A stretch of DNA of 64,000 nucleotides, taken from NCBI GenBank assembly GCA_000004695.1, contig CM000150.2, positions 32,001 through 96,000 of the forward strand. The letters are read 5' to 3'. The translations under genes and the position numbers were made by a program. Below are positions 7,885 through 64,000 of this stretch, in pieces; position 1 is the first letter of the stretch, and every line of letters begins with the position of its first letter. The notes below the pieces were generated by a model that was given only the letters and a program-made list of their open reading frames with translations, was not told the origin of the DNA and searched no databases. The stretch is from Dictyostelium discoideum. Taxonomy: Eukaryota.

Positions 7885-7889
7885 ATCAT

Positions 7890-10049
7890 ATGAGCCAACA
7901 AAATTTAAATGAAAATTTTATAATTGATGAGAATAATAATAATTTAGAAAATGAAAATGAAAATGAAAATGAAAATAATTCATTTGAGGATATAGGAAAT
8001 ATATTAAACCAAAATGGACAAGAAAATGATGATATTGAAATTTTAAAAGAAAAAGAAAATGGAAATTTAGGAAAAGAATTAAATAATTATGAAATTGGAT
8101 TTTTAAAGTTGGGTTTAGAAAATGCTAAATCGTTAAAATTTATGCAACAAATTTTGGATTTTTTTAAAAACAATATAAATGCAATTAATGAAATTAGATA
8201 TACAACAAAGTATATGGATTCTATATTTTTAGCAAATTTACCTATCGATGGTCACTTTTTGAGTTACAAATATTATGAAGAGTCAATTTTTTATTATGAA
8301 ATTTGTTCAGTTGTAAAATTATTAATTGAAAAAAAAATTTTTTTAGAATATTTAGATTTCTCAAAAGACTATGAGCAAGGTATTTATAAAAATTATAAAT
8401 CTGGAGAACAATTCAAAAAAGTAAAAAATTCAATTTCAGATAAATTTATTTTATTAAGAATATTTAGTGACGGAATGAGTCATCAAGGTAGATCAGATTA
8501 TACTATAATGGTGGATTTTGAAAATTATAATGGTCCATTTTTTAAAAATAACAAAATTGTTTTATTTAGTGTTCCAAAAGAAAGGTTTCACAATATACAT
8601 CAAACAATTAAAAAATTATTTTCAGCGCAATTTAATAATAAATTAATAATTAAAGATAATAATGGAAATGATTATGAAATTATACCATATGGATTAACAA
8701 TGGATATACCAGAATTTAGATCATCTTGTAGGATTAACCATTATAATTGCAATGAGTTCTCATGTCATACATGTGATAAAGCAAGAGGTGTCGATTATTT
8801 ATTAAAAGAAGGAAATTATAGAAATCAAAAAGACATTATTGACTTTCACAATTCAAAACCAAATAAACAAGATTTTTTGAATCCTCAAAATAAAATTTTA
8901 AAATTAGAAACAGAACAAAAAATGAAAAAAATCGGCATTACAGATTATGACAGATCTTGGGTAGAAAATTTAAAAATAAATTATTTGTACTTACATACTG
9001 ATATTTTACACAAAATATTATTGGGTATTGTACAATGGGTTTTAAATTATATTTTCAAAAAATATAAGGATCAAATTACAATTTTTATAAAAAAATTAAA
9101 AGAAGCTAAAATCATTCCAGATCATTTACCACCATCAGAATCTTTATTTGGTGTAAAAACAAGAAAAGGTAGAGAGAATAGAAGCATATTATATTTTATT
9201 TTATTTTTTACTAAATCAAATGTATCAAATGATGATTCCTTATTATTAGAAGAAATGGTTCAGATTACTTTTTTATTATATCAAGATTCTTTCGACGAAG
9301 ATGATTTGGATAAAATAAATTATTTAGTTAAAAATTTTAATAAAAAAATATTTATGATAATACCAAATGAACCAATCAACTTTCACCTTTTATTACATTA
9401 TCCTTTATATATAAAAAATTGGGGTGCACCAAAATTTACATCAGCAGAGAGATTTGAAGCACAATTTAGTAAAATTAAAGACCTTTTGACAAACAATACA
9501 AACAACCAAGATCAACATAAATTTGAAAGAGTAACAAAAATATTAATGGCAACATTTTTAGATAATTTTAACAATCTAAAAGAAAAAGATGATGACAATA
9601 ATGATTTAATTTTAGGGCAAATAATTAAAAAAAATGAAAATATTTATTTAAAAAATAATATTTTATCAGACATTAACTTGCATTACAAAAACATTGAAAA
9701 TATTCAATTTCATAAATCAATTAAAAATTTAAAAGAAATATATAATGTTGGTGATGGAATTGAAGTTGCCTCAGAAAATTCATTAACTGGACGATGGAGT
9801 GCAATAATTATTGCTATTTGTTTAATAGAATTAAAAAATAAAAAAAGTGCACATTCTATTTATATACAATACTTTGATAAAGATATAGGTGATCAAAATA
9901 ATAAGTACCACTTTTTAAGAAAAAGCTTTTCAAGTATAGTATTTGATAACATAGTAAACACATTAATACCAATACAAATCGATTCGTCTAACTATCTTAT
10001 AATTTATAAGTGCCATGACCAATTTTCAATAAGTAAAAAAAAAAAATGA
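7890..10049 (+). CDS. Family-A transposase, N-terminally truncated (equals residues ~100-816 of the 31591-34041 copy)
   Basis: 719-aa ORF. Motifs IIPYGLTMDIPEF, HYNCNEFSCHTCDK, DILHKILLGIVQ, NFHLLLHYPLYIKNWGAPKFTSAERFEAQFSKIK and a C-terminal GDGIEVASENSLTGRWSAII...LIIYKCHD domain resemble the Transposase_21/DUF4218/DUF4216 blocks of CACTA TnpD. Confidence 0.7.
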   Translation: MSQQNLNENFIIDENNNNLENENENENENNSFEDIGNILNQNGQENDDIEILKEKENGNLGKELNNYEIGFLKLGLENAKSLKFMQQILDFFKNNINAINEIRYTTKYMDSIFLANLPIDGHFLSYKYYEESIFYYEICSVVKLLIEKKIFLEYLDFSKDYEQGIYKNYKSGEQFKKVKNSISDKFILLRIFSDGMSHQGRSDYTIMVDFENYNGPFFKNNKIVLFSVPKERFHNIHQTIKKLFSAQFNNKLIIKDNNGNDYEIIPYGLTMDIPEFRSSCRINHYNCNEFSCHTCDKARGVDYLLKEGNYRNQKDIIDFHNSKPNKQDFLNPQNKILKLETEQKMKKIGITDYDRSWVENLKINYLYLHTDILHKILLGIVQWVLNYIFKKYKDQITIFIKKLKEAKIIPDHLPPSESLFGVKTRKGRENRSILYFILFFTKSNVSNDDSLLLEEMVQITFLLYQDSFDEDDLDKINYLVKNFNKKIFMIIPNEPINFHLLLHYPLYIKNWGAPKFTSAERFEAQFSKIKDLLTNNTNNQDQHKFERVTKILMATFLDNFNNLKEKDDDNNDLILGQIIKKNENIYLKNNILSDINLHYKNIENIQFHKSIKNLKEIYNVGDGIEVASENSLTGRWSAIIIAICLIELKNKKSAHSIYIQYFDKDIGDQNNKYHFLRKSFSSIVFDNIVNTLIPIQIDSSNYLIIYKCHDQFSISKKKK

Positions 10050-10192
10050 AAAAAATTCGTTGAACTTATTTACATAACTTTTACATTTTTACGTAACTTT
10101 TTCTTTTTTTTTTTTCTTTTTTTCCAATTTTCTTTTTTTTCGGTTGGAAATTATAGGATTTTAAAAAAAATTAAAAAAATATTATAAAAAAA

Positions 10193-10482
10193 ATGACTCA
10201 CAATAATTCTACATCATTTGAAACACCAAATAGAAGTGGTAATTATGTAAATAGATCATCTTTAACTTCACCAACATCACCAATAACACCAATACCATCT
10301 CTTATTTTAAATCAAACTGATACCTCCATAGGTCCACAACGTACTGTTAGAAGACAACAAAGACCTCAAAGACCAAATGCAAGTCATCCACCAACAACAA
10401 ATATTGTAGAAAAAATATTGGTGTATGAAACATTGCACAGAAATTGTGTTTCTCAATACTATGCAACTGGTAAGGTAAGATA

Positions 10483-10530
<48 letters not shown>

Positions 10531-11179
10531 GACTAATTAAATTAAATAAACAAAAACAATACATAAGATTTCCTCTCGTTTTATTAGGACCTGTATATTA
10601 AATGCTGGCGGTACAAATTCAAATGAAAATAAAGTTGTTCTATCCAAATTGGTTAAATGGGTCAACAATAAACGTGGTAACACACGTATTAAAGCCCTAA
10701 ATACCCTTAGACTTTTAGTTAGAAATAAAGTAGAACAGTTCAGCGAGTTGCTCTCTCAGGTTCCAGCATTAATGGAGTATGAATCGGTATGTAAAAAAAA
10801 AAAAAAATAAAAAAATAAAAAAAAAAAAAAAAATAAAAAAAAAAATAAAAAAAAAAAAAAAAATAAATTATTAATAATTTGTTTTTTTAATTTTTTAATT
10901 ATTATTTAGATAACTCCTTTTGATTTGGCCACTCTTATTATCGATACAGTTACCTTAGAAGCTTTTGACTCCGATCCTTTTGTAAAGTTCTTAGTGTCTC
11001 AATGCTTTACAATTGAAGAAAAAGAATGGTACAGCGGTTCCAAACCTCTTATTTCTTTAATAGTTAAAGCATTGCGTGGTGTTTCTCAAAAGTTCATTGA
11101 CTCTCCTGATGAACTTACTTACACTGAAAAGGTTGCTTTTGAATTCACTTCAATACCTCTTTATGCTCCACTAAATTAA
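10193..11179 (+). CDS. Family-A second gene (accessory protein of unknown function), 3 exons: about 10193-10474, ~10568/10588-10786, ~10909-11179. Exact splice phases not resolved by hand.
   Basis: Exon 1 ends ...YYATGK followed by GTAAGA. AT-rich introns end in AG. All three exon translations are conserved in family B (39540-40243, and 61147-61900 reverse) while the introns are not. Confidence 0.5.
10488..10525. repeat. Poly(A) tract (~38 nt) inside intron 1 of the family-A second gene
   Basis: Homopolymer; the corresponding tract in copy 2 (34483-34541) is ~59 nt. Confidence 0.9.
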
Positions 11180-11340
11180 ATCGTTTAAATAAAAAAAATT
11201 AATATGATTTCACATACTCAACTTTAATTTTTTCTTTTTTTTTTAAATCTTTATTTAATTTTTATTTTAAATTTTTATTTTTAATTTTTATTTTTAAAGT
11301 GATATTATTAATATATCTTATTAAGTTAACTTTATAATAT

Positions 11341-11760
11341 AAATTTATAAATGCACTTTTAAATTGAATTTTATAAATATAATTAATAAGAATACTTAAT
11401 AAGTGTACTTATAAAGAGTACATTATAATTATAAATAGTAATTACGCTTAATAAGTATACTTAATAATAATACTTAATAATAATACTTAATAAGTATACT
11501 TATTAAGTATACTTATTAATTTTACTTAATATGTATACTTATTAATTTTACTTAATATGTATACTTAATAATTATACTTAATAAGTATACTAATTAATTA
11601 TACTTAATAATTATACTTAATAATTATACTTAATAAGTATACTTAATAAGTATACTTAATAAGTGTATTTAATAAGTATACTTAATAAGTATACTTTATA
11701 AGTATATTTAATAAGTATACTTAAAAAGTATACTTTATAACTATACTTATTAAGTACACT
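11341..11760. repeat. Tandem array of ~15-17-bp units (TACTTAATAAGTATA and variants): subterminal repeats of family A
   Basis: Visible periodic repetition; the same array is at 35341-35760 and related arrays flank family-B ends (30300-30480, 36400-36480, 40808-40920). Confidence 0.75.
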
Positions 11761-11825
11761 TTATAATAGTACTATTTACATTCCTACTTTAAAGATGCTT
11801 TTAAGTATTTTTTTTCGCCCCTGTG

Positions 11826-12127
11826 AAAGGTATAGACAGGGTCATAGGTTCCCCGTCATTTTTTGAAAATGGGGTATATCCCTCTAAATAAATAAATCTA
11901 AAGCTAAATCCTATATTGACTTGCTATATTGCTAAAATTTGAATAAAATGAAAAAAAAAAAAAAAAATCGTAAAAACTCGAGGAAAAAAAAAAAAAAAAT
12001 ATTATTTTTAATTTCCACCCAGCAAACAAAATGAATTTAAATAACATATCATGCATTAATTGCAGAGAAAAATTAAAGAATTTTAAAAATATTATTATTC
12101 ATTATTTTATGCATAAAAATATATGTC
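11826..12127 (+). mobile_element. Family-B 5' region plus first 32 codons of its transposase (ATG at 12031), truncated at 12128 by a MITE-like insertion
   Basis: 11826-12127 aligns with 36707-37010 (aaaggtatagacagggtcataggttccccgtc...atgaatttaaataacatatcatgcattaattgc). Confidence 0.6.
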
Positions 12128-12764
12128 CACAGCAAAGAAAAATGCACCTTTAAAGCAAATTTAAAGCAAAGTTGATTTAAATTTGATTTAAATTGAATTT
12201 AAAGCCGCATTTAAAAAATTCATTTTTAAGGTAATTTTTAAGGTTATTTTTAAGATATTTAAAAATGCTTTTAAAATTTGCTTTAAAATAAATTTTTAAG
12301 CAATTTTAAAGGTGATTTTAAAGGTGATTTTAAAGGTGATTTTTAAGGTAATTTTTAAGATAATTTTTAAGATATTTAAAAATACCTTTAAAATTTATTT
12401 TAAATTAATTTTAAATTGAATTTAAGTAGATTTAAAGTAGATTTATAGTGAATTTAAATTTCCTTTAAATATAAATTTAAGGTTTTTAATAAAAAAGATC
12501 TAATTTTAGATCAAAATGGGGATAAAATATTCTATCAATTTTAAATTTTCATCAAAGCAATCAAATGGTGAAATGGTTGATGAGACTACCCTTTGATAAA
12601 GGGTCGGGGGGTAGAATCCCTTTTGGTAATTTTTGAAAAATTTAAAAAAAAAATTAAATAATTTTATCCGTTAAATAACGGCTTCGAACTCAGGACCTCG
12701 CTTTTAAAGCGATTAAAAAGGTTATTTTAAAGGTAATTTTTAAGGTGATTTTAAAGTAAACTTT
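12128..12764 (+). mobile_element. CACAG-terminus nonautonomous (MITE-like) element, copy i, 3'-truncated; contains GGTGATTTTAAA-type tandem repeats and a tRNA-like module (about 12545-12720)
   Basis: Starts CACAGCAAAGAAAAATGCACCTTTAAAGCAAATTTAAAG, the same as the termini of the complete copy at 55858-56605. Confidence 0.55.
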
Positions 12765-30255: not shown

Positions 30256-30505
30256 CACAGCGGCGAAAATCAACACTTTAAAGCACCTTTAAATCCAAGT
30301 ACTCTTTTTAATATATATTAATAAGTATACTTAATAAGTAATACTTAATAAGTACACTTAATAAGTATACTTAATAAATATACTTTATAAGTACTACTTA
30401 ATAAGTACACTTATTAAGTATACTTATTAAGTATACTTATAAAGTATTACTTTTTAAGTATACTTATTAATATATATTAATAATTAATTATTTTTATTTT
30501 TTTTT
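30256..30505 (-). mobile_element. Family-B right-end fragment (inverted): terminus CACAGCGGCGAAAATCAACACTTTAAAGCACC plus TAAGTATAC-type repeats
   Basis: Reverse complement of 40808-40976. Confidence 0.55.
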
Positions 30506-31270
30506 TTAAAAAATGTTTTGTGTGGGAATTGAACCCGTGACCTCCCTTCCTGAAGTTCCGTGGAAATGTTTTATGTGGGAATTTAACCATGACCTCCCTT
30601 CTGGAAGTTCCGGGGGAAAAAATGTTTTATATGGGAATCGAACCCTTGACCTCTACCTTATTAATTTATCGTATTTCTATGTAAGCTATAGACACTTTGA
30701 TAATTTTCATTGAAAATAGCTATAATATGAATGTTAAAAAACTTCCAAGTAAAAAAAAAAAGAATGTGAAATAACTCTGTGGTTGTTGTATTATTGATAT
30801 TGCTGTATGTAATTTCTATTGCTGTTGCTGTATTAGTGATGTTGTATTATTATTGTTGCTTTATTATTGCTGTTGTTGTACTATTGATGTTGCTGTTTTA
30901 TTGATGTTGCAGTCCTAACTGTTGTTGTGTTGTTATTATGTTGTAATTATTGTTGTTGTCGCACCTGTTGTGTTCAGCTACAGTGTTGTTATTGTGTTGT
31001 TATTGTGTTGTAATTGATTTTGAAGTTGTTTTGTTATTGTGTTGTTATTGTGTTTGTTGTGTTGTTATTGTGTTGTTATTGTGTTTGTTGTGTTGTTATT
31101 GTGTTGTTATTGTGTTTTTTGTGTTGTTATTGTGTTGATTTCATTTTTCAATTGATTTTGCAGTTGTTGTTGTACCTGTTATTGTTTTATTGTTTTATGG
31201 TTGCACCTGTTGTGGTTTTTATTATTGTTGCTAAAATTGTTGGTGTGTGTTGTAGTTGTTTGTTCTGTGT
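30506..31270. repeat. Left inverted arm of family-A copy 2: three tRNA-3'-half-like ~50-bp units (30513-30660), a GT-rich region, then a (TGTTGTTATTGTG)n array ending ..GTTCTGTG
   Basis: Inverted copy at 35830-36400. Units contain GGGAATCGAACCCTTGACCTC, the complement of a T-arm-like motif. Confidence 0.6.
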
Positions 31271-31289
31271 ATATATTCATAAAATTTTC

Positions 31290-31334
<45 letters not shown>

Positions 31335-31590
31335 ACTTTTTTCAATTTTTTCATTTTTTATTTTTTTTTTGCCGAAAAGGGAAAACATGCATGTTTAATT
31401 TTTAATTTTATTTTTTTTAATTTAATTTTATTTAATTCTTTTTTTTTTTTTGTATTTTTTTTTTTTTTTCATTTTTTTATTTCACTTTTTTATTTTTATT
31501 TTTTCATTTTTCATTTTTTTTTTTTCGCTTTTTTATTTCACTTTTTTATTTTTATTTTTTTAATTTATTTATTTTAAAAACATATTTGAA

Positions 31591-34041
31591 ATGGATTTAA
31601 AAAAAGTGGATTGCATTATTTGTAAACAACCAATTAAATGTTTCAAAGATATAGTTATACATTTTATTAAACATAATGATCGTTGCCCAATTTGTTTAAG
31701 CAAATATACATCATTTTCAAAAATGTATGCTTTAACAGGTCATTATTATTCACAAGGTTGTAATAATAAAAAAAATAATATAAAGGGTGAACAAAAATTG
31801 CAAGATGAATTTTATCAGAGGTTATCAAAGATTACAGGCGATAATATTATATACCCAACCAACTTATCCGATGACCCTTTCAATCATATGAGCCAACAAA
31901 ATTTAAATGAAAATTTTATAATTGATGAGAATAATAATAATTTAGAAAATGAAAATGAAAATGAAAATAATTCATTTGAGGATATAGGAAATATATTAAA
32001 CCAAAATGGACAAGAAAATGATGATATTGAAATTTTGAAAGAAAAAGAAAATGGAAATTTAGGAAAAGAATTAAATAATTATGAAATTGGATTTTTAAAG
32101 TTGGGTTTAGAAAATGCTAAATCGTTAAAATTTATGCAACAAATTTTGGATTTTTTTAAAAACAATATAAATGCAATTAATGAAATTAGATATACAACAA
32201 AGTATATGGATTCTATATTTTTAGCAAATTTACCTATCGATGGTCACTTTTTGAGTTACAAATATTATGAAGAGTCAATTTTTTATTATGAAATTTGTTC
32301 AGTTGTAAAATTATTAATTGAAAAAAAAAATTTTATAGAATATTTAGATTTCTCAAAAGACTATGAGCAAGGTATTTATAAAAATTATAAATCTGGAGAA
32401 CAATTCAAAAAAATAAAAAATTCAATTTCAGATAAATTTATTTTATTAAGAATATTTAGTGACGGAATGAGTCATCAAGGTAGATCAGATTATACTATAA
32501 TGGTGGATTTTGAAAATTATAATGGTCCATTTTTTAAAAATAACAAAATTGTTTTATTTATTGTTCCAAAAGAATGGTTTCACAATATACATCAAACAAT
32601 TAAAAAATTATTTTCAGCGCAATTTAATAATAAATTAATAATTAAAGATAATAATGGAAATGATTATGAAATTATACCATATGGATTAACAATGGATATA
32701 CCAGAATTTAGATCATCTTGTAGGATTAACCATTATAATTGCAATGAGTTCTCATGTCATACATGTGATAAACTAAGAGGTGTCGATTATTTATTAAAAG
32801 AAGGAAATTATAGAAATCAAAAAGACATTATTGACTTTCACAATTCAAAACCAAATAAACAAGATTTTTTAAATCCTCAAAATAAAATTTTAAAATTAGA
32901 AACAGAACAAAAAATGAAAAAAATCGGCATTACAGATTATGACAGATCTTGGGTAGAAAATTTAAAAATAAATTATTTGTACTTACAACCTGATATTTTA
33001 CACAACATATTATTGGGTATTGTACAATGGGTTTTAAATTATATTTTCAAAAAATATAAGGATCAAATTACAATTTTTATAAAAAAATTAAAAGAAGCTA
33101 AAATCATTCCAGATCATTTACCACCATCAGAATCTTTATTTGGTGTAAAAACAAGAAAAGGTAGAGAGAATAGAAGCATATTATATTATATTTTATTTTT
33201 TACTAAACCAAATGTATCAAATGATGATTTCTTATTATTAGAAGAAATGGTTCAGATTACTTTTTTATTATATCAAGATTCTTTCGACGAAGATGATTTG
33301 GATAAAATAAATTATTTAGTTAAAAATTTTAATAAAAAAATATTTATGATAATACCAAATGAACCAATCAACTTTCACCTTTTATTACATTATCCTTTAT
33401 ATATAAAAAATTGGGGTGCACCAAAATTTACATCAGCAGAGAGATTTGAAGCACAATTTAGTAAAATTAAAGACCTTTTGACAAACAATACAAACAACCA
33501 AGATCAACATAAATTTGAAAGAGTAACAAAAATATTAATGGCAACATTTTTAGATAATTTTAACAATCTAAAAGAAAAAGATGTTGACAATAATGATTTA
33601 ATTTTAGGGCAAATAATTAAAAAAAATGAAAATATTTATTTAAAAAATAATATTTTATCAGACATTAACTTGCATTACAAAAACATTGAAAATATTCAAT
33701 TTCATAAATCAATTAAAAATTTAAAAGAAATATATAATGTTGGTGATGGAATTGAAGTTGCCTCAGAAAATTCATTAACTGGACGATGGAGTGCAATAAT
33801 TATTGCTATTTGTTTAATAGAATTAAAAAATAAAAAAAGTGCACATTCTATTTATATACAATACTTTGATAAAGATACAGGTGATCAAAATAATAAGTAC
33901 CACTTTTTAAGAAAAAGCTTTTCAAGTATAGTATTTGATAACATAGTAAACACATTAATACCAATACAAATCGATTCGTCCAACTATCTTATAATTTATA
34001 AGTGCCATGACCAATTTTCAATAAGTAAAAAAAAAAAATGA
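31591..34041 (+). CDS. Family-A transposase, 816 aa, open: N-terminal C2H2/CPxC zinc-finger region then CACTA TnpD-like blocks
   Basis: MDLKKVDCIICKQPIKCFKDIVIHFIKHNDRCPICL..., then the motif set listed for 7890-10049. Confidence 0.75.
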   Translation: MDLKKVDCIICKQPIKCFKDIVIHFIKHNDRCPICLSKYTSFSKMYALTGHYYSQGCNNKKNNIKGEQKLQDEFYQRLSKITGDNIIYPTNLSDDPFNHMSQQNLNENFIIDENNNNLENENENENNSFEDIGNILNQNGQENDDIEILKEKENGNLGKELNNYEIGFLKLGLENAKSLKFMQQILDFFKNNINAINEIRYTTKYMDSIFLANLPIDGHFLSYKYYEESIFYYEICSVVKLLIEKKNFIEYLDFSKDYEQGIYKNYKSGEQFKKIKNSISDKFILLRIFSDGMSHQGRSDYTIMVDFENYNGPFFKNNKIVLFIVPKEWFHNIHQTIKKLFSAQFNNKLIIKDNNGNDYEIIPYGLTMDIPEFRSSCRINHYNCNEFSCHTCDKLRGVDYLLKEGNYRNQKDIIDFHNSKPNKQDFLNPQNKILKLETEQKMKKIGITDYDRSWVENLKINYLYLQPDILHNILLGIVQWVLNYIFKKYKDQITIFIKKLKEAKIIPDHLPPSESLFGVKTRKGRENRSILYYILFFTKPNVSNDDFLLLEEMVQITFLLYQDSFDEDDLDKINYLVKNFNKKIFMIIPNEPINFHLLLHYPLYIKNWGAPKFTSAERFEAQFSKIKDLLTNNTNNQDQHKFERVTKILMATFLDNFNNLKEKDVDNNDLILGQIIKKNENIYLKNNILSDINLHYKNIENIQFHKSIKNLKEIYNVGDGIEVASENSLTGRWSAIIIAICLIELKNKKSAHSIYIQYFDKDTGDQNNKYHFLRKSFSSIVFDNIVNTLIPIQIDSSNYLIIYKCHDQFSISKKKK

Positions 34042-34188
34042 AAAAAATTCGTTGAACTTATTTACATAACTTTTACATTTTTACGTAACTTTTTCTTTTT
34101 TTTTTTTTTTCTTTTTTTCCAATTTTCTTTTTTTTCGGTTGGAAATTATAGGATTTTAAAAAAAAATTAAAAAAATATTATAAAAAAA

Positions 34189-34476
34189 ATGACTCACAAT
34201 AATTCTGCATCATTTGAAACACCAAATAGAAGTGGTAATTATGTAAATAGATCATCTTTAACTTCACCAACATCACCAATAACACCAATACCATCTCTTA
34301 TTTTAAATCAAACTGATACCTCCATAGGTCCACAACGTACTGTTAGAAGACTACAAAGACCTCAAAGACCAAATGCAAGTCATCCACCAACAACAAATAT
34401 TGTAGAAAAAATATTGGTGTATGAAACATTGCACAGAAATTGTGTTTCTCAATACTATGCAACTGGTAAGGTAAGA

Positions 34477-34543
<67 letters not shown>

Positions 34544-35191
34544 AAGAGACTAATTAAATTAAATAAACAAAAATAATACATAAGATTTCCTCTCGTTTTA
34601 TTAGGACCTGTATATTAAATGCTGGCGGTACAAATTCAAATGAAAATAAAGTTGTTTTATCCAAATTGGTTAAATGGGTCAACAATAAACGTGGTAACAC
34701 ACGTATTAAAGCCCTAAATACCCTTAGACTTTTAGTTAGAAATAAAGTAGAACAGTTCAGCGAGTTGCTCTCTCAGGTTCCAGCATTAATGGAGTATGAA
34801 TCGGTATGTAAAATAAAAAAAAAAAATAAAAATAAAAAAATAAAAAAAAAAAAAAAATAAAAAAAAAAAAAAAAATAAATTATTAATAATTTGTTTTTTT
34901 AATTTTTTAATTATTATTTAGATAACTCCTTTTGATTTGGCCACTCTTATTATCGATACAGTTACCTTAGAAGCTTTTGACTCCGATCCTTTTGTAAAGT
35001 TCTTAGTGTCTCAATGCTTTACAATTGAAGAAAAAGAATGGTACAGCGGTTCCAAACCTCTTATTTCTTTAATAGTTAAAGCATTGCGTGGTGTTTCTCA
35101 AAAGTTCATTGACTCTCCTGATGAACTTACTTACACTGAAAAGGTTGCTTTTGAATTCACTTCAATACCTCTTTATGCTCCACTAAATTAA
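34189..35191 (+). CDS. Family-A second gene, copy 2: exons about 34189-34470, ~34585/34605-34803, ~34921-35191
   Basis: Identical organisation to 10193-11179; intron 1 carries a 59-nt poly(A) tract. Confidence 0.5.
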
Positions 35192-35340
35192 ATCGTTTAA
35201 ATAAAAAAAATTAATATGATTTCACATACTCAACTTTAATTTTTTCTTTTTTTTTTAAATCTTTATTTAATTTTTATTTTAAATTTTTATTTTTAATTTT
35301 TATTTTTAAAGTGATATTATTAATATATCTTATTAAGTTA

Positions 35341-35760
35341 ACTTTATAATATAAATTTATAAATGCACTTTTAAATTGAATTTTATAAATATAATTAATA
35401 AGAATACTTAATAATTGTACTTATAAAGAGTACATTATAATTATAATTAGTAATTACGCTTAATAAGTATACTTAATAATAATACTTAATAAGTATACTT
35501 ATTAAGTATACTTATTAATTATACTTAATAATTATACTTAATAAGTATACTTATTAAGTATACTTATTAATTATACTTAATAATTATACTTAATAAGTAT
35601 ACTAATTAATTATACTTAATAATTATACTTAATAATTATACTTAGTAAGTATACTTAATAAGTATACTTAATAAGTGTATTTAATAAGTATACTTAATAA
35701 GTATACTTTATAAGTATATTTAATAAGTATACTTAAAAAGTATACTTTATAATTATACTT
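35341..35760. repeat. TACTTAATAAGTATA-type subterminal tandem array (family-A copy 2)
   Basis: Same array as 11341-11760. Confidence 0.75.
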
Positions 35761-35829
35761 ATTAAGTACACTTTATAATAGTACTATTTACATTCCTACT
35801 TTAAAGATGCTTTTAAGTATTTTTTTTCG

Positions 35830-36400
35830 CCCCTGTGCAACACAACAAACAAATAACAACACAACAAACAAATAACACAATAACAACACAACAAACACAA
35901 TAACAACACAACAAACACAATAACAACACAATAACAAAACAACTTCAAAATAAATTACAACACAATAACAACACAATAACAACACTGTAGCCGAACACAA
36001 CAGGTACGACAACAACAATAATTACAACATAATAACAACACAACAACAGGTAGGACTGCAACATCAATAAAACAGCAACATCAATAGTACAACAACAGCA
36101 ATAATAAAGCAACAATAATAATACAACATCAATAATACAGCAACAGCAATAGAAATTACATAGCAATATCAATAATACAACAACCACAGAGTTATTTCAC
36201 ATTCTTTTTTTTTTTTACTTGGAAGTTTTTTAACATTCATATTATAGCTATTTCCAATGAAAATTATCAAAGTGTTTATAGCTTACATGGTAATGCGATA
36301 AATTAATAAGGTAGAGGTCAAGGGTTCGATTCCCATATAAAACATTTCCACGGAACTTCAGGAAGGGAGGTCACGGTTCAATTCCCACATAAAACATAAA
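35830..36400. repeat. Right inverted arm of family-A copy 2 (AC-rich array plus tRNA-half-like units)
   Basis: Reverse complement of about 30513-31140. Confidence 0.6.
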
Positions 36401-36913
36401 TATATATATTAATAAGTATACTTAAAAAGTAATACTTTATAAGTACACTTAATAAGTATACTTAATAAGTGTACTTATTAAGTAGTACCACAGCAAAGAA
36501 AAATGAAAAAAAAAAAAAAAATTTAATTATTTGTTTTGCATATTTATATTATAAGTATAAACATACATATAAAAAAAGATTTTTTATTTTTTATTTTTTA
36601 TAATTAATAAACAATTAACGAGTGCACAGGTATATTATTGCATTAGTGTAGTTTTACAATTAATTGGGCAGATTTTATAGTTTTTTTTTAATATTTTAAA
36701 AAGAAAAAGGTATAGACAGGGTCATAGGTTCCCCGTCATTTTTTGAAAATGGGGTATATCCCTCTAAATATAAAATTCTAAGTACTAAATCATATATCTA
36801 CTTGCTATAATGCTAAAATTTGAATAAAATGAAAAAAAAAAAAAAAAAAAACGTAAAAACTCGAGGAAAAAAAAAAAAAAAAAATTATTTTTAATTTCCA
36901 GCCAGCAAACAAA

Positions 36914-39420
36914 ATGAATTTAAATAACATATCATGCATTAATTGCAGAGAAAAATTAAAGAATTTTTAAAATATTATTATTCATTATATTATGCATAAA
37001 AATATATGTCCATTTTGTCTTGCATATTACCGTTCTTATAAACAATTTTATGATGTAAATGGACATTTCAACACCAAAAAATGTAAAAATGAACAAAATA
37101 AAATTATTACAAATAATCAAAAAAGAGATAGCTTTTATAAAAAATTAATGGATATTACTGGTGAAAAAATAAAATATCCAACAAATGATCCAGATGACCC
37201 ATGTAAACATTTATGTAACCAAAACCAAGATGAAATTTTTTATCAAGAAAATAATGAAAATAATGAAAATAATCAAACAATTGATAATGAAGAAAATCAT
37301 GATATAATTGGGTTGGTACATAGTGAAGATGAAAACAATGAAATTAGAATAGATGAAAATGAAGCAAACATTAATAATGAAAATAATGAAAATAATGAAA
37401 ATGAAAATGCTCAAAACGAACCAATAAATAATAATCTAAATAATAATTTAGATAATGAAAAATCAAAAAAAAAATTAAATGAAACTGAAATTGAATTTTT
37501 AATGTTGGGAATTGAAAACTCAATAAGTTTAAAGCTACTTGAAAAATTTAAAAGTTTTATTGACAAAAATAAAACCAATTTAAATCAAATAAGATACACA
37601 CCTCAATATATGGATAAATTATTTATTGAAGATTTTCAAATAAAAGGAGAAACATTTATAAATAAAAATTATGATCACTCAATTTTTTATTTTGAAATTA
37701 AAAAAGTATTAGAAACTTTATTAAATAAAAAGCAATTTTTTGAAAGAATAGATTTTGATACAGATTTTGAAACTGGAATTTATACAAATTATAAAAGTGG
37801 TCAACAATTTAAAGATTTAAAAAATAAAAATAAAAATAAAATTGTTTTACTTAGAATTTTCACTGATAGTATGCAGTGTCAAAACAAGAAAGATTATACT
37901 ATAATGCTGGATATAGAAAATTATATTGGAAATGAATTTAAAAATAATAAATTATTATTATTTGTAGTACCAAATGATTGGTTACTTAATTTTCATCAAA
38001 CAATTAGGGCATTGTTTTCATCTTTTATTGGTAATGGCTTTAATTTAATTATTGAAAATGAACAAATAGATGTTGTACCGTTTGGACTAACAATGGATAT
38101 TCCAGAATTTAGAGCATCGTGTAAACTTAATGGACATAATTCAAATGAATATGCATGTCACACATGTGAAAAACCAAGAGATGGTTTATTTATTTGCAAA
38201 TCAGGTACATTAAGAAAACAAGAAGATATTACAAATTTTCACTCCAACAAACCAAATTATGCTGAATTAAATGCTGATATAGAATTAAAAAAAGTATGGG
38301 AAAAAAAAGCAAAAGATATTGGTATCAAAGGTGTGGACAGAGGGTGGGTCGAACCCTTGTCTATTAATTATTTAAAAACACAACCAGACATATTACATAA
38401 TATTTTATTAGGTGTCGCGCAAAGATGTTTAAATTACATTTTTGATAAATATAAAAATAAAATTGCAAATTTTTTAAATAATTTAAAAAATGCAAAAATA
38501 ATAGATAACAAACCAAAACCTTCAATTTCACTATTTGCAAATAAAACAAGGAAAGGAAGAGAGAATAGATCAATATTATATTACCTTTTAATATCAATTA
38601 AAAATCAAATATCAAATGATGATTTTTTAATTATGGAACAATTAGTAACTATATGTTTTAAATTATATAGTGACTCTTTTGATGAAAATGATTTAAATTC
38701 ACTTCAAGTATTAATTGAATCGTTTAATGCAAAAGTAAATTTAATTACTGAAACAGAAATAATGAATTTCCACTTGTTGTTACATTATCCAATCTATATA
38801 AAAAATTGGGGAGCACCAAAATACACTTCAGCTGAAACTTTTGAAGCACAATTATCAAGAATTAAAAATTATTTAAAAAATAATACAAATAATAGGGATG
38901 AACAATATGAAAGGGTTACCAAATTAAACATGGTGAAATTTTTTAATTCAGTAGATAAATTAAAAAGTATTGAACCTGAAAGTACAGCATTAATTATTGG
39001 TTACAAAATAAAAAATCCAGATAATTTAGATAACATAAAAATTAAATTAGATTCATTATTTCAAAACTATAAAAATATAACTTTTCACTCATCAATTAAA
39101 AATAATTAAGAAATATACAATGTTGGTGATGCAGTTGAAGTTGCATCAGATAATGAACTTTCAGGTAGATGGTCAGGTATTATCAATTCAATATCAATGA
39201 TTGAAATGGATGATAACATAATAAAACATGCAATATTATTAAATTATTTTGACAAATATGTTGGTGACCAATTTAATAAATACCAATAATTAAATTATAT
39301 TACATATGATAATATTCTAAATAATGTTATACCAATTCAAATTGATGATACCAATTACCTTATTATTTACAAATGCCACGATAAATTCTCGGCTTCAAAA
39401 AATAAAAAATCAAAAAATTA
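36914..39420 (+). pseudogene. Family-B transposase (about 830 codons), disrupted: +1 T near 36965 (MNLNNISCINCREKLKNF*), in-frame TAA at 39107, further stops in the C-terminal domain
   Basis: 705-aa ORF-track piece 36992-39109 is homologous to the family-A transposase (same motif order). The undamaged N-terminus is seen at 12031-12127. Confidence 0.65.
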
Positions 39421-39539
39421 AAAACTTTTTTACATAATTTTTACATTGTTATGTAAATAATGATTTTTTTTTTTTAATTTTTTTTCATTTTCGGGCAGAC
39501 TGAAAAAGCGAATATGATTTCAATACATATTTTTTTAAA

Positions 39540-39920
39540 ATGAATTCATCTGCAAATTTTATAGCACCAAATGGTAATGTACCTGATTTTAACCAATCAC
39601 CAATCCAAAGAAGAACAAACAATAATATTTCTATCGGAGATGAATCATTTAATAATTTGTCAATAGGTAATGTATTAGGAAATGCAAATGCTCCAAACCC
39701 AATGGAAAACCAGAGAATAATTAGAAGAGTTCCAAGGCCAACTGTTCCACCAATCCAAGAAACAGTGCAAATAGCCACAAACCCACGTGTAACATACATA
39801 TTGGAATACGAAAGTCTTCAGAAAGTTTGTCAAAGTAAATACTATTCAGATGGCGATGTATGTTACCATTTGGTAATGAAATTGTGTGTATAAATTTATA
39901 TAATCAAAATTTACAAAATA

Positions 39921-39968
<48 letters not shown>

Positions 39969-40243
39969 AAATATAGTTTTCCCCTGCTTTACTTTCTCTT
40001 TTTCTCAGCCACATTAATTATGAAAATTATCAAAATGATATTTTCATAAAAGAGTTTGTTGACTCTTGTAAAACAGGTGAAGAGAAACACTGGTACCCAG
40101 ATTCAGTTCCTTTAATAAAGAGATTAATTTCAATATTAAATGATTTTAGTAGTAAATTTGACTCTAAGGCTAAAATGAGAAAAGATGCACAAGAAGCTTT
40201 TCAATTTCCTCATTCTGCACTTTACTTAAATTCTTCCCAATAA
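39540..40243 (+). CDS. Family-B second gene lacking the middle exon: exon about 39540-39857, intron with poly(T), exon ~40009-40243
   Basis: ..TYILEYESLQKVCQSKYYSDGD | ..EEKHWYPDSVPLIKRLISILNDFSSKF.. is homologous to family-A exons 1 and 3. Confidence 0.45.
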
Positions 40244-40489
40244 AAGTTTTAAAATAATTTTTAAAATTTAAAAATAAATTTTATTATTAAAAAATAATAT
40301 ATCTGTGTATTTTATTGTTCACATAAAATTTTATTTCATACTATAGTTTTAAAATAATTTTTAAATTTTTTTTTTTATTTTTGTGGCATTATTAATAAGG
40401 TGCTTTTAAATGTAATTATTAATAATCTTTAAAATTCAATTTTTAAGGAGCTTTAAAATGTAATTATTAATATAATTTTTAATCATATT

Positions 40490-40690
40490 TTTAAGTAATT
40501 TTAAAGAGCATTATAAAGTTAATTTTAAAGGGCATTTTAAACTTAATTTTAAAGAGCATTATAAAGGTAATTTTAAAGGTCATTTTAAAGGTAATTTTCA
40601 AGGTCATTTTAAAGTTAATTTTAAAGGTGATTTTAAAGGTAATTTTAAAGGTGATTTTAAAGGTGATTTTAAAGGTGATTTTAAAGGTCA
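40490..40690. repeat. Tandem ~10-12-bp repeats (A)GGTGATTTTAAA and variants: subterminal repeats of family B, also present in the MITE-like elements (12290-12360, 56370-56420) and at 60630-60900
   Basis: Direct visual periodicity. Confidence 0.8.
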
Positions 40691-40976
40691 TTTAAATAAT
40701 TGCTTTTAAATTAATTTTTAAGTGACTTTTTTATAGGACTTTAAATCCACTTTTAATTTAATTTAAAGTTGCTTTAAAGGTGTAATTTTCATCGCTGTGA
40801 CTTATAAAGTATATTTATTAAGTATACTTATTAATTGTACTTATTAAGTATTATTTATTAAGTATACTTATTAATTGTACTTATTAAGTATTACTTATTA
40901 AGTATACTTATTAATATATATTAAAAAGAGTACTTGGATTTAAAGGTGCTTTAAAGTGTTGATTTTCGCCGCTGTG

Positions 40977-58692: not shown

Positions 58693-60530
58693 AAAGAGAT
58701 AGCTTTTATAAAAAATTAATGGATATTACTGGTGAAAAAATAAAATATCCAACAAATGATCCAGATGACCCATGTAAACATTTATGTAACCAAAACCAGA
58801 TGAAATTTTTTATCAAGAAAATAATGAAAATAATGAAAATAATCAAACAATTGATAATGAAGAAAATCATGATACAATTGGGTTGGTACATAGTGAAGAT
58901 GAAAACAATGAAATTATAATGGATCAAAATGAAGCAAACATTAATAATGAAAATAATGAAAATAATGAAAATGAAAATTGTCAAAATGAACCAATAAATA
59001 ATAATCAAAATAATAATATAGATATTGAAAAATCAAAAAAAAAATTAAATGAAACTGAAATTGAATTTTTAATGTTGGGAATTGAAAACTCAATAAGTTT
59101 AAAGCTTCTTGAAAAATTTAAAAGTTTTATTGACAAAAATAAAACTAATTTAAATCAAATAAGATACACACCTCAATATATTGATAAATTATTTATGGAA
59201 GATTTTCAAATAAAAGGAGAAACATTTATAAATAAAAATTATGATCACTCAATTTTTTATTTTGAAATTAAAAAAGTATTAGAAACTTTATTAAATAAAA
59301 AGCAATTTTTTGAAAGAATAGATTTTGATACAGATTTTGAAACTGGAATTTATACAAATTATAAAAGTGGTCAACAATTTAAAGATTTAAAAAATAAAAA
59401 TAAAAATAAAATTGTTTTACTTAGAATATTCACTGATAGTATGCAGTGTCAAAACAAGAAAGATTATACTATAATGCTGGATACAGAAAATTATATTGGA
59501 AATTAATTTAAAAATAATAAATTATTATTATTTGTAGTACCAAATGATTGGTTACTTAATTTCCATCAAACAATTAGGGCATTGTTTTCATCTTTTATTG
59601 GTAATGGCTTTAATTTAATTATTGAAAATGAGCAAATAGATGTTGTACCGTTTGGACTGACAATGGATATTCCAGAATTTAGAGCATCGTGTAAACTTAA
59701 TGGACATAATCCAAATGAATATGCATGTCACACATGTGACAAACCAAGATATGGTTTATTTATTTGCAAATCAGGTACATTAAGAAAACAAGAAGATATT
59801 ACAAATTTTCACTCCACCAAACCAAATTATGCTGAACTAAATGCTGATATAGAATTAAAAAAAGTATGGGAAAAAAAAGCAAAAGATATTGGTATCAAAG
59901 GTGTGGACAGAGGGTGGGTCGAACCCTTGTCCATTAATTATTTAAAAACACAGCCGGACATTTTACATAATATTTTATAAGGTGTCGCACAAAGGTGTTT
60001 AAATTACATTTTTGATAAATATAAAAATAAAATTGCAAATTTTTTAAATAATTTAAAAAATGCAAAAATAATAGATAACAAACCAAAACCAGCAATTTCA
60101 CTATTTGCAAATAAAACAAGGAAAGGAAGAGATAATAGATCAATATTATATTACCTTTTGATGTCAATTAAAAATCAAATATCAAATGATGATTTTTTAA
60201 TTATGGAATAATTAGTAACTATATGTTTTAAATTATACAGTGACTCTTTTGATGAAAATGATTTAAATTCACTTCAAGAATTAATTGAAAGTAAATTTAA
60301 TTACTGAAACAGAAATAATGAATTTCCACTTGTAATTACATTATCCAATTTATATAAAAAATTTAGGTGCTCCAAAATACACTTCAGCTGAAACTTTTGA
60401 AGCACAATTATCAAGAATTAAAAATTATTTAAATAATAATACAAATAATAGGGATGAACAATATGAAAGGGTTTCCAAAGAAAACATGGTGAAATTTTTT
60501 AATTCAGTAGATAAATTAAAAACACAGCGA
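58693..60530 (+). mobile_element. Family-B copy 2: internal transposase-gene fragment (residues ~47-600), frameshifted, lacking both termini
   Basis: ORFs 58883-59506 and 59582-59980 match 37300-38400 at protein level with frame breaks. Confidence 0.6.
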
Positions 60531-60532
60531 TG

Positions 60533-61421
60533 AAAGTTACACCTTTAAAGCAACTTTAAATTAAATTAAAGTGGATTTAAAGTCCTATAAAAAAGTCACT
60601 TAAAAATTAATTTAAAAGCAATTTTTTAAATGACCTTTAAAATCACCTTTAAAATCACCTTTAAAATTACCTTTAAAATCACCTTTAAAATTAACTTTAA
60701 AATGACCTTGAAAATTACCTTTATAATGCTCTTTAAAATTAACTTTAAAATGCCCTTTAAAATTACCTTTATAATGCTCTTTAAAATTACCTTTAAAATG
60801 ACCTTTAAAATGACCTTTAAAATTACCTTTATAATTTTTTTTAAAATTAAGTTTAAAATGCCCTTTAAAATTAACTTTATAATGCTCTTTAAAATTACTT
60901 AAAAATATGATTAAAAACTATATTAATAATTACATTTTAAATCTCCTTAAAAATTGAATTTTAAAGTTTATTAATAATTACATTTAAAAGCACCTTATTA
61001 ATAATGCAAAAATAAATAAAAAAATTTTAAAAATTATTTTAAAACTATAGTATGAAATAAAATTTTATGTGAACAATAAAATACACAGATATATTATTTT
61101 TTAATAATAAAATTTATTTTTAAATTTTAAAAATTATTTAAAACTTTTATTGGGAAGAATTTAAGTAAAGTGCAGAATGAGGAAATTGAAATGCTTCTTG
61201 TGCATCTTTTCTCATTTTAGCCTTAGAGTCAAATTTACTACTAAAATCATTTAATATTGAAATTAATCTCTTTATTAAAGGAACTGAATCTGGGTACCAG
61301 TGTTTCTCTTCACCTGTTTAACAAGAGTCAACAAACTCTTTTATGAAAATATCATTTTGATAATTTTCATAATTAATGTGGCTGAGAAAAAGAGAAAGTA
61401 AAGCAGGGGAAAACTGTATTT

Positions 61422-61471
<50 letters not shown>

Positions 61472-61749
61472 TATTTTGTAAATTTTGATTATATTAATTT
61501 ATACACACAATTTCATTACCAAAAAATACTTGGCTATCGGAAATATAAACTTTAAGATTGTGGTTTTTTTCACCTTTTGAATAAATGGCTAAACTGTCAG
61601 CTACTTTTGTTCTTGTGTTACTATCCTTATTACTTACCCATTTCGTTAACCTTGCAAAAATATTTTGACTGGTACAATCTTCGTTACTACCACCAGCTTG
61701 TTTAATTATTCCAGTAATAAAGAAATTTGAAACCTATTTATTTAAATTA

Positions 61750-61786
<37 letters not shown>

Positions 61787-64000
61787 ATTAATCTGGTAAC
61801 ATACATCGCCATCTGAAAAGTATTTACTTTGACAAACTTTCTGAAGACTTTCGTATTCCAATATGTATTGAAATCATTTTCGCTTTTTCAGTCTGCCCGA
61901 AAATGAAAAAAAATTAAAAAAAATCATTTTTTACATAAAAATGTAAAAATTATGTAAAAAAGTTTTTAATTTTTTGATTTATTATTTTTTGAAGCCGAGA
62001 TTTTATCGTGGCATTTGTAAATTATAAGGTAATTGGTATCATCAATTTGAATTGGTAAAACATTATTTAGAATATTATCATATGTAATATAATTTAATTC
62101 ATTTGAAAGAAAATGGTATTTGTTAAATTGGTCACCAACATATTTGTCAAATAATTTAATAATATTGCATGTTTTATTATGTTATCATCCATTTCAATCA
62201 TTGATATTGAATTGATAATACCTGACCATCTACCTGAAAGTTCATTATCTGATGCAACTTCAACTGCATCACCAACATTGTATATTTCTTTATTATTTTT
62301 AATTGATGAGTGATTATTTATATTTTTATAATTTTGAAATAATGAATCTAATTTAATTTTTATGTTATCTAAATTATCTGGATTTTTTATTTTGTTACCA
62401 ATAATTAAAGCTGTACTTTCAATTTCAATACTTTTTAATTTATCTACTGATTTAAAAAATTTCACCATGTTTAATTTGGTAACCCTTTCATATTGTTCGT
62501 CCCTATTATTTGTATTATTATTTAAATAATTTTTAATTCTTGAGAATTGTGCTTCAAAAGTTTCAGCTGAAGTGTATTTTGGTGCACCCCAATTTTTTAT
62601 ATAAATTGGATAATGTAACAACAAGTGGAAATTCATTATTTCTGTTACTTTAAACATCTTTGCGCGACACCTAATAAAATATGTAAAATGTCTGGTTGTG
62701 TTTTTAAATAATTAATGGACAAGGGTTCGACCCACCCTCTGTCCACACCTTTGATACCAATATCTTTTGCTTTTTTTCCCATACTTTTTTTAATTCTATA
62801 TCAGCATTTAGTTCAGCATAATTTGGTTTGGTGGAGTGAAAATTTGTAATATCTTCTTGTTTTCTTAATGTACCTGATTTGCAAATAAATAAACCATATC
62901 TTGGTTTGTCACATGTGTGACATGCATATTCATTTGGATTATGTCCATTAAGTTTACACGATGCTCTAAATTCTGGAATATCCATTGTCAGTCCAAACGG
63001 TACAACATCTATTTGCTCATTTTCAATAATTAAATTAAAGCCATTACCAATAAAAGATGAAAACAATGCCCTAATTGTTTGATGGAAATTAAGTAACCAA
63101 TCATTTGGTACTACAAATAATAATAATTTATTATTTTTAAATTAATTTCCAATATAATTTTCTGTATCCAGCATTATAGTATAATCTTTCTTGTTTTGAC
63201 ACTGCATACTATCAGTGAATATTCTAAGTAAAACAATTTTATTTTTATTTTTATTTTTTAAATCTTTAAATTGTTGACCACTTTTATAATTTGTATAAAT
63301 TCCAGTTTCAAAATCTGTATCAAAATCTATTCTTTCAAAAAATTGCTTTTTATTTAATAAAGTTTCTAATACTTTTTTAATTTCAAAATAAAAAATTGAG
63401 TGATCATAATTTTTATTTATAAATGTTTCTCCTTTTATTTGAAAATCTTCCATAAATAATTTATCAATATATTGAGGTGTGTATCTTATTTGATTTAAAT
63501 TAGTTTTATTTTTGTCAATAAAACTTTTAAATTTTTCAAGAAGCTTTAAACTTATTGAGTTTTCAATTCCCAACATTAAAAATTCAATTTCAGTTCCATT
63601 TAATTTTTTTTTTGATTTTTCATTATCTAAATTATTATTAAGATTATTATTTATTGGTTCGTTTTGAGCATTTTCATTTTCATTATTTTCATTATTTTCA
63701 TTATTAATGTTTGCTTCATTTTCATCTATTCTAATTTCATTGTTTTCATCTTCACTATGTACCAACCCAATTATATCATGATTTTCTTCATTATCAATTG
63801 TTTGATTATTTTCATTATTTTCATTATTTTCTTGATAAAAAATTTCATCTTGGTTTTGGTTACATAAATGTTTACATGGGTCATCTGGATCATTTGTTGG
63901 ATATTTTATTTTTTCACCAGTAATATCCACTAATTTTTTATAAAAGCTATCTCTTTTTTGATTATTTGTAATAATTTTATTTTGTTCATTTTTACATTTT
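60533..64000 (-). mobile_element. Family-B copy 3 (inverted), running off the window end: inner terminus unit (60533-60600), GGTGATTTTAAA repeats (60630-60900), second-gene remnant (61147 to about 61905, exon 1 largely deleted but middle exon retained), frameshifted transposase (62094-63930)
   Basis: 60533 CACAGCGATGAAAGTTACACCTTTAAAGC is the reverse complement of 40779-40807. ORFs 62094-62657, 62704-63066 and 63142-63930 match the family-B transposase. Confidence 0.6.

Follow-up and report, generated by a model that had tools for sequence, protein, structure and literature searches.

The three-exon ORF2 gene

A three-exon gene occupies positions 34189-35191 of a 64,000-nucleotide stretch of Dictyostelium discoideum DNA (contig CM000150.2, positions 32,001 to 96,000; hereafter the window, numbered from its first letter). 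It is the second open reading frame (ORF2) of a two-gene DNA transposon with terminal inverted repeats, of the DDT type, in the DIRS/DDT cluster of the chromosome-1 centromere. The element that carries it, copy 2 of an AT-rich family designated A, extends over 5583 bp (30256-35838), and ORF2 lies 147 bp downstream of the first gene, ORF1, on the same strand. Only one combination of GT..AG junctions joins the three frames, with both introns in phase 0. The features of this gene and of the intact ORF2 in family-A copy 1 are as follows:

34189..34470, + strand: exon 1, encoding a predicted disordered, S/T/P/N-rich N-terminus that has the conserved QRxVRRxxRP motif, and the first part of the helical core
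34471..34584, + strand: intron 1, 114 nt, phase 0, GTAAGA..AAG, 92% A+T, with a poly-A run
34585..34803, + strand: exon 2, 73 aa, holding the most conserved block AGG...KWVNNKRGNTRIK
34804..34921, + strand: intron 2, 118 nt, phase 0, GTATGT..TAG, 97% A+T
34922..35191, + strand: exon 3, TAA stop included, with AATAAA within ~15 nt downstream
10193..11179, + strand: intact ORF2 of family-A copy 1 (= DDB_G0267230), exons 10193-10474, 10568-10786 and 10910-11179

The product of copy 2 is a protein of 256 aa, residue-for-residue identical to the hypothetical protein DDB_G0267252 of D. discoideum AX4 (P0017). The original prediction, made from the letters of the window alone, proposed a second element-encoded gene of three exons, and the GT..AG gene model, the identity to DDB_G0267252 and the location inside the element all bear this out. 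The peptides it quoted were found in their frames; its product size of ~220 aa was too small, and its ambiguous phase assignment is now resolved, since the sole junction set yields a protein identical to DDB_G0267252. The exons contain 65-67% A+T and the introns 92-97%, a contrast usual for Dictyostelium; the ATG lies in an A-rich start context, and unspliced read-through at the first donor leads to an in-frame stop after two codons. The two family-A copies differ by three exon substitutions, and their introns differ in length by amounts not divisible by three. Both are intact, as had been predicted, and many intact 256-aa copies exist. We regard it as almost certain that a functional protein is encoded here by a spliced gene of the transposon.

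Conservation and selection

The window contains a second AT-rich family, designated B. When aligned with a composite family-B protein, family-A ORF2 displays 34% identity over 214 aa (E-value 8e-33). Compared exon by exon as protein, exons 1, 2 and 3 of the two families score z = 7.5, 13.4 and 22.4 against shuffles, with 0/300 shuffles reaching the observed score, while the same exons compared as DNA resemble each other no more than expected by chance (z -0.5 to 2.0). The proposed protein-level conservation between the families thus survives shuffle-tested alignment for all three exons. The accompanying claim that the introns are unrelated stands insofar as they do not align, but this says little, as they are short (60-120 nt) homopolymer tracts of 88-97% A+T in which poly-A is the only similarity. 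The ratio of nonsynonymous to synonymous substitution rates (dN/dS) between family-A and family-B exons, suggested as a check, was calculated, but saturation of synonymous sites (dS 1.2-1.8) makes it unusable. Divergence between the two families is larger in ORF2 (~33% amino-acid identity) than in ORF1 (50%).

Estimates of dN/dS were instead taken from within-family pairs with unsaturated synonymous sites. These gave 0.21-0.48 for ORF2, with each bootstrap 95% interval below 1, and 0.24-0.25 for ORF1 in matching pairs; for the helical domain of ORF2 the range was 0.22-0.56. The purifying selection that had been proposed is therefore confirmed, and it is about as strong on ORF2 as on the ORF1 putative transposase.

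Five further loci bring the number of subfamilies to six when combined with the window; they come from four assemblies, belonging to D. discoideum and D. cf. discoideum. At these loci ORF2 lies 120-150 bp downstream of ORF1 (~815-835 aa where intact), and in all of them two GT..AG introns, both in phase 0 and homologous in position, separate three exons. A-type genes have an exon 2 of exactly 219 nt and B-type genes one of 225 nt; the introns measure 59-123 nt. Amino-acid identity of ORF2 between the six subfamilies ranges from 31 to 85%, with no frame-breaking indels in the exons, while intron lengths vary freely.

Within the B-type elements, ORF1 of B and B''' (window 36992-39106 versus L002 3377-5875) shows 83% identity with dS 0.35, and ORF2 (L003 versus L002) 66% identity with dS 0.81. 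The two genes therefore seem to differ in history, by way of module exchange or recombination between subfamilies.

A search of the window with tblastn returned exactly four ORF2 loci, two in family A and one each in family-B copies 1 and 3; family-B copy 2 (58693-60522) stops within ORF1 and has no ORF2. The family-B loci consist of the following parts:

39540..39857, + strand: copy 1, ORF2 exon 1, 106 aa
39858..39976, + strand: copy 1, fused intron remnant, where a deletion took most of intron 1 and all of exon 2 except ~15 nt
39977..40243, + strand: copy 1, ORF2 exon 3, stop included
61805..61860, - strand: copy 3, exon 1 remnant (last 56 nt), the remainder deleted with the upstream leader; junction 61861/61860
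61509..61733, - strand: copy 3, ORF2 exon 2, 75 aa, with an ATT/GTGTGT donor conserved as coding sequence in diverged subfamilies
61147..61413, - strand: copy 3, ORF2 exon 3, interrupted by an early TAA stop at 61320-61318

As originally stated, no family-B copy in the window is complete, copy 1 lacking exon 2 and copy 3 most of exon 1. In copy 1 the exon-1 donor and the exon-3 acceptor flanking the deletion (39858-39976) are intact and in frame, so that a 194-aa protein without exon 2 could still be produced. Other assemblies contain intact 270-aa copies of family-B ORF2, and the composite protein used above is 97% identical over its full length to one of these, from another D. discoideum assembly (P0029).

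Genomic setting and assignment to DDT

Comparison of the window with itself revealed many copies of a ~4.8-kb, moderately GC-rich repeat alternating with the two AT-rich families. We take this repeat to be DIRS-1, judging by its size, copy number and centromeric position rather than by a sequence match. We likewise take families A and B to be DDT-A and DDT-B, an assignment made by size and location rather than by comparison with a consensus. DDT-A, DDT-B and DDT-S of Dictyostelium were described by Glockner et al. 2001 (as cited in PMC5633606 and PMC2665215). The copies in the window are:

7885-11828: family-A copy 1, encoding DDB_G0267228 and DDB_G0267230
30256-35838: family-A copy 2, 97.9% identical to copy 1
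~37078-40799: family-B copy 1
58693-60522: family-B copy 2
64000-60523, - strand: family-B copy 3

Proteins of the window are identical to gene products of D. discoideum AX4 chromosome 1. The centromeres of this species consist of DIRS-1 clusters with ~20% DDT DNA transposons, and at the chromosome-1 centromere DDT makes up 22% against 0.9% for Tdd elements (PMC2665215). Families A and B are treated as DDT elements because their chromosome-1 setting matches this published DIRS-1/DDT centromere. Like DDT, they are multi-copy elements of ~5.5 kb in a D. discoideum host, with terminal inverted repeats and proteins unlike known transposases, interleaved with DIRS-1 on chromosome 1. Neither ORF1 nor ORF2 contains an integrase (rve) domain of the Tdd-4/5 kind by Pfam or PDB search, in agreement with PMC5633606. 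The published DDT-B consensus has 5471 bp and a tRNA-like A/B-box motif (PMC9012585), to be compared with the 5583 bp and tRNA-like 53-bp repeats of family A, and no feature was found that sets families A and B apart from DDT elements.

Each element end in the window adjoins another repeat, and DDT elements are nested in each other. The right end of family-B copy 1 adjoins an inverted family-A terminus (40800-40976), of which 40917-40976 is identical to the family-A left end at 60/60 positions; an inverted partial family-A left arm follows the right end of family-A copy 2 (35848-36488), and further nesting is seen at 11826-12129 / 36706-37012. Such nesting agrees with the reported tendency of DDT to sit among its own kind (PMC2665215).

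The ORF2 protein

When 1.84 billion representative proteins were searched exhaustively with an HMMER profile, only 21 matches to the ORF2 family were returned. The sources looked up among these are D. discoideum, D. cf. discoideum and D. dimigraforme, the remainder being near-identical fragments of the same proteins, and no host paralogue outside DDT contexts appeared in this search. ORF2 is thus an orphan family known only from Dictyostelium. The D. dimigraforme match (L006 6639-7452), the sole one with a recorded source other than D. discoideum or D. cf. discoideum, is a rearranged ORF2 relic in which an exon-1-like piece lies opposite in strand to an exon-2/3-like piece; there is no ORF1 within 7 kb of it.

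Searches of Pfam with ORF2 of families A and B and six aligned members, at E-values up to 10, gave scattered single-member matches (HEAT_EF3_N at 0.18, DUF5032, Bromo_TP_like), none of which recurred, and a PDB sequence profile search with ORF2 gave no match. The alignment of the family reveals a conserved extreme N-terminus, the basic QRxVRRxxRP motif and, as the best-conserved block, a basic and polar patch, AGG...L.KWVxNKxxNTRxK. A low-confidence AlphaFold2 prediction leaves the first ~75 residues disordered and places nine helices in residues 78-244. The resemblance of WVNNKR in this block to the homeodomain WFQNRR was pursued and rejected: hhalign assigned it a probability of 1%, on a 12-residue local match of KLVKWVNNKRG to QIKIWFQNRR, and the Pfam search gave no Homeodomain match.

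Architecture of the element

ORF2 is situated between ORF1 and the right subterminal repeat array, in an element whose remaining features are:

31591..34041, + strand: ORF1 of family-A copy 2 (= DDB_G0267250), 816 aa, a putative transposase with an N-terminal C2H2-type zinc finger
34062..34088, + strand: 27-bp palindromic motif TTACATAAYTTTTACATTKTTAYGTAA in the intergenic stretch that separates the ORF1 stop from the ORF2 ATG
10070-10096, 39430-39456 and 61931-61957(-): further copies of this motif, which is also found in L001-L005 around 5860-5900
30256..30293, + strand: left terminal inverted repeat of family-A copy 2, CACAGCGGCGAAAATCAACACTTTAAAGCACCTTTAAA
35800..35837, - strand: right terminal inverted repeat of family-A copy 2, with 31/38 matches to the left repeat
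30314-30483: left subterminal array of family A
35385..35778: right subterminal array of family A, 13-bp unit ATAAGTATACTTA x 30, beginning ~190 bp past the ORF2 stop
40487..40693: right subterminal array of family B, 12-bp unit ATTTTAAAGGTA x 17, unlike the family-A unit; the right terminus of family B is at 40799

The terminal inverted repeats of family A are imperfect, 38 bp long and begin CACAG, with a tip common to family B (34/40 matches); the termini read CACAGCGGCG / CACAGGGGCG in family A and CACAGCGATG in family B. The subterminal units vary among subfamilies, those of A and A' being 13 bp and related to TACTTAATAAGTA, that of B 12 bp and that of B''' 24 bp.

Each ORF1-ORF2 junction of the window has exactly one copy of the intergenic motif, shuffled sequences have none, and the motif is kept in all six subfamilies despite the divergence of the flanking intergenic DNA and of ORF2. 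It is a candidate for an ORF2 promoter element or an ORF1 3'-end signal. Together with the conserved ORF2 ATG and N-terminal peptide, it favours an independently expressed ORF2.

No homology of ORF1 to known transposases was detected by Pfam or PDB profile search, and its AlphaFold model has a mean predicted local distance difference test score (pLDDT) of 39. The predicted order of strands and helices in residues 283-378, followed by a long helical insertion, would fit an RNase-H-like DDE core only loosely. A C-terminal beta-rich domain of ORF1 (residues 699-782, window ~33685-33936, EIYNVGDGIEVAS..GRWSAIIIAI..) gives consistent Foldseek matches to BAH histone-mark reader domains (E-values 6e-3 to 0.07, probability ~1.0), obtained with a low-confidence model and not confirmed by Pfam and PDB sequence searches. 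If true, a BAH-like chromatin reader in ORF1 could account for the bias of DDT elements towards centromeres.

The left arm of family A contains 2.6 copies of a 53-bp unit at 30510-30653 (inverted copy 36314-36400). The unit includes sequence resembling the 3' half of a tRNA (GGTTCAATTCCC, opposite strand); ARAGORN finds no intact tRNA. These repeats recall the A/B-box motif of DDT-B, reported as an integration target of TRE5-A (PMC9012585). Between them and the ORF1 leader lies a long imperfect (GTGTTGTTATT)n / (TGTTGTTGTGTTGTTATTGTG)n array, present at 30780-31250 and 35838-36190.

Expression

DDB_G0267252 is up-regulated in a dnmA knockout (baseMean 24.4, log2 fold change 2.44, adjusted P 0.0024), in a table that also contains Tdd-4, thug-S, Skipper and TRE genes (PMC12405889). 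Assignment of RNA-sequencing reads to DDB_G0267252 is ambiguous because the gene is multi-copy. Unlike the genes of those four elements, it is listed there without a product name or '_TE' suffix, and it was apparently not flagged as a transposon gene in the annotation used. Transcripts of DDT-A and DDT-S have been detected in studies of CbfA (PMC4559204).

Comparison with known two-gene systems

In En/Spm, the TnpA protein binds 12-13-bp subterminal repeats and works with the TnpD transposase. ORF2 resembles TnpA in being the second protein of a terminal-inverted-repeat transposon with short (12-13 bp) subterminal repeat arrays. However, En/Spm termini are CACTA and those described here CACAG..., TnpA is an alternative splice product whereas ORF2 appears to be a separate gene with its own conserved ATG and intergenic motif, and no homology to TnpA (Pfam Transposase_24) was found at E <= 10 for six ORF2 family members. 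PIF/Harbinger is a two-gene cut-and-paste element in which a small Myb-like accessory protein is needed for end binding and nuclear import. The likeness lies in the small protein encoded beside a transposase; the gene order and transposase of PIF/Harbinger are unrelated to those of the element described here, and Pfam detects no Myb, SANT or trihelix domain in ORF2. The MURB protein of maize MuDR is the product of a lineage-restricted second gene, with no recognisable domains and an unclear role. ORF2 is likewise the lineage-restricted, domainless second gene of a DNA transposon, but its sequence is unrelated, and the MuDR genes are convergent while ORF1 and ORF2 are in tandem. Membership of ORF2 in the TnpA, Harbinger-Myb or homeodomain families was rejected, each sequence test being negative. 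Finally, VANC of the Arabidopsis VANDAL (Mutator-like) elements is also element-encoded and strongly diverged between families that have their own tandem repeats (PMC5735166); it differs in showing no sequence similarity to ORF2, whose dN/dS carries no signal of positive selection.

Proposed function of ORF2

We lean, if only slightly, towards ORF2 being an accessory transposition protein needed for propagation of the element, which would cooperate with the putative transposase ORF1 at the ends of the element. This reading is the most economical because ORF2 is under ORF1-like selection, is held in a fixed ORF1-ORF2-array architecture and has no host paralogues. In the proposed mechanism, the ~180-aa helical domain would engage either the family-specific 12-13-bp subterminal repeats or ORF1 bound at these repeats, with contact made through the invariant patch W125-V-x-N128-K129-x-x-N132-x-R134-x-K136, and this engagement would help to assemble or license the transposition complex, while the basic N-terminal RRxxRP motif may serve nuclear import or nucleic-acid contact. 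Direct binding of ORF2 to the subterminal repeats, in the manner of TnpA, is a reasonable guess, which we rate as rather unlikely. Between families A and B, the shared tips are paired with ORF1, the better conserved gene, and the arrays peculiar to each family with ORF2, the more diverged one. This correlation, and it is no more than that, is what one would expect if the two proteins divided the work, the transposase acting on the tips and the accessory protein on the arrays.

Several observations weigh against this role. Pfam, PDB, HMMER and hhalign searches found no homology of ORF2 to accessory transposon proteins or DNA-binding domains; the AlphaFold2 model, built on a six-sequence alignment, is of low confidence (pLDDT 47, predicted template modelling score 0.29) and too poor for use, and it has no match in the PDB by Foldseek at E <= 0.001. 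The helical domain is near neutral (isoelectric point 5.4-8.8), and the N-terminal region, basic in 4/6 subfamilies, has lost this character in two. Because ORF2 adjoins the right array, physical linkage confounds the association of its divergence with that of the repeats, and a separate DNA-binding partner is not required, since ORF1 itself carries a C2H2-type zinc finger at its N-terminus. From purifying selection one learns that ORF2 has a function but not which one, and no transposition activity has been shown for any DDT element (PMC5633606).

Some of the same observations suit a protein-protein adaptor, whose partners would be the ORF1 transposase or, from the host, chromatin or import factors, contacted through its conserved N-terminal peptide (MxNSSxxFxxPN), the RRxxRP motif and a helical scaffold; such a role would be similar to the part that the Harbinger Myb-like protein plays in nuclear import. 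An all-helical, solenoid-like prediction with short conserved motifs in a disordered N-terminus, a helical domain near neutrality and a zinc finger already present in ORF1 are what such a protein might show, and the sole weak Pfam and Foldseek matches are to helical repeats of the HEAT/ARM/PPR type. These matches are not significant, however, and the Asn/Lys/Arg-rich nature of the best-conserved block suits nucleic-acid contact at least equally. An adaptor is a credible but unlikely alternative. A role closer to that of VANC, in which ORF2 would be a family-specific anti-silencing or regulatory factor that binds its own tandem repeats and counters centromeric heterochromatin or RNA-interference silencing, outside cut-and-paste chemistry, finds encouragement in the greater divergence of ORF2 than of ORF1 between families (33% vs 50% identity), in the tandem repeat arrays that each family has in its own non-coding ends, in the residence of the elements in centromeric heterochromatin (PMC2665215) and in de-repression alongside other transposon genes in the dnmA knockout. 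The targets of VANC are indeed tandem repeats that vary among related elements (PMC5735166). This role is nevertheless improbable: neither VANC nor any other protein resembles ORF2 in sequence, the silencing biology of D. discoideum is unlike plant DNA methylation, and the dN/dS of the helical domain (0.22-0.56) shows no sign of an arms race. Improbable too, if a little less so, is the bolder proposal that ORF2 founds a Dictyostelium-restricted class of sequence-specific nucleic-acid-binding proteins, each of which would recognise only the 12-13-bp array of its own family through the WVxNK..N.R.K patch and license transposition or relieve centromeric silencing, a TnpA- or VANC-like role performed by an unrelated fold.

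ORF2 might also not be an independent gene at all, either because it supplies the 3' exons of an alternatively spliced ORF1 transcript, in the manner of TnpA/TnpD, or because it is a passenger captured from the host. The position of ORF1 on the same strand, only 147 bp upstream, would permit the former, but the ATG, the A-rich start context and the first ~15 residues are kept in all subfamilies, the ORF1 stop is conserved and is followed by the conserved 27-bp motif between the genes, the sole obvious donor-acceptor pair between ORF1 and ORF2 leads to an immediate stop, and independent gene predictions in five assemblies call ORF2 a separate gene. A passenger is opposed by the exhaustive search, which found no host paralogue outside DDT contexts. 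We consider both variants very improbable. A chance or decaying reading frame without function might be suspected from the broken state of both ORF2-bearing family-B copies in the window and from the many fragmentary gene models. The exon-wise protein z scores of 7.5-22 and dN/dS well below 1 together effectively refute it, and six subfamilies preserve the reading frame, the length and the places of the introns, many of the 256-aa copies being intact. The role as an accessory transposition protein therefore remains the one we favour, at the slight strength given above.

Significance

The finding is a correct rediscovery, as a description of the element family dates from 2001 and the AX4 annotation lists its two genes as hypothetical proteins. 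What is added here is the conservation of the introns, the dN/dS estimates, the restriction of ORF2 to Dictyostelium and the conserved intergenic motif. The proteins of Dictyostelium DNA transposons resemble no known transposases, and their expression and control have not been studied (PMC5633606). DDT makes up about one fifth of the D. discoideum centromeres, yet the mobility and proteins of these elements are unstudied (PMC2665215, PMC5633606). In practical terms, DDB_G0267252, DDB_G0267230 and their paralogues can now be recognised as transposon ORF2 genes instead of anonymous host genes. If it is true that ORF2 recognises the family-specific subterminal repeats, the protein would provide a handle on how DDT elements target and build centromeric DNA.

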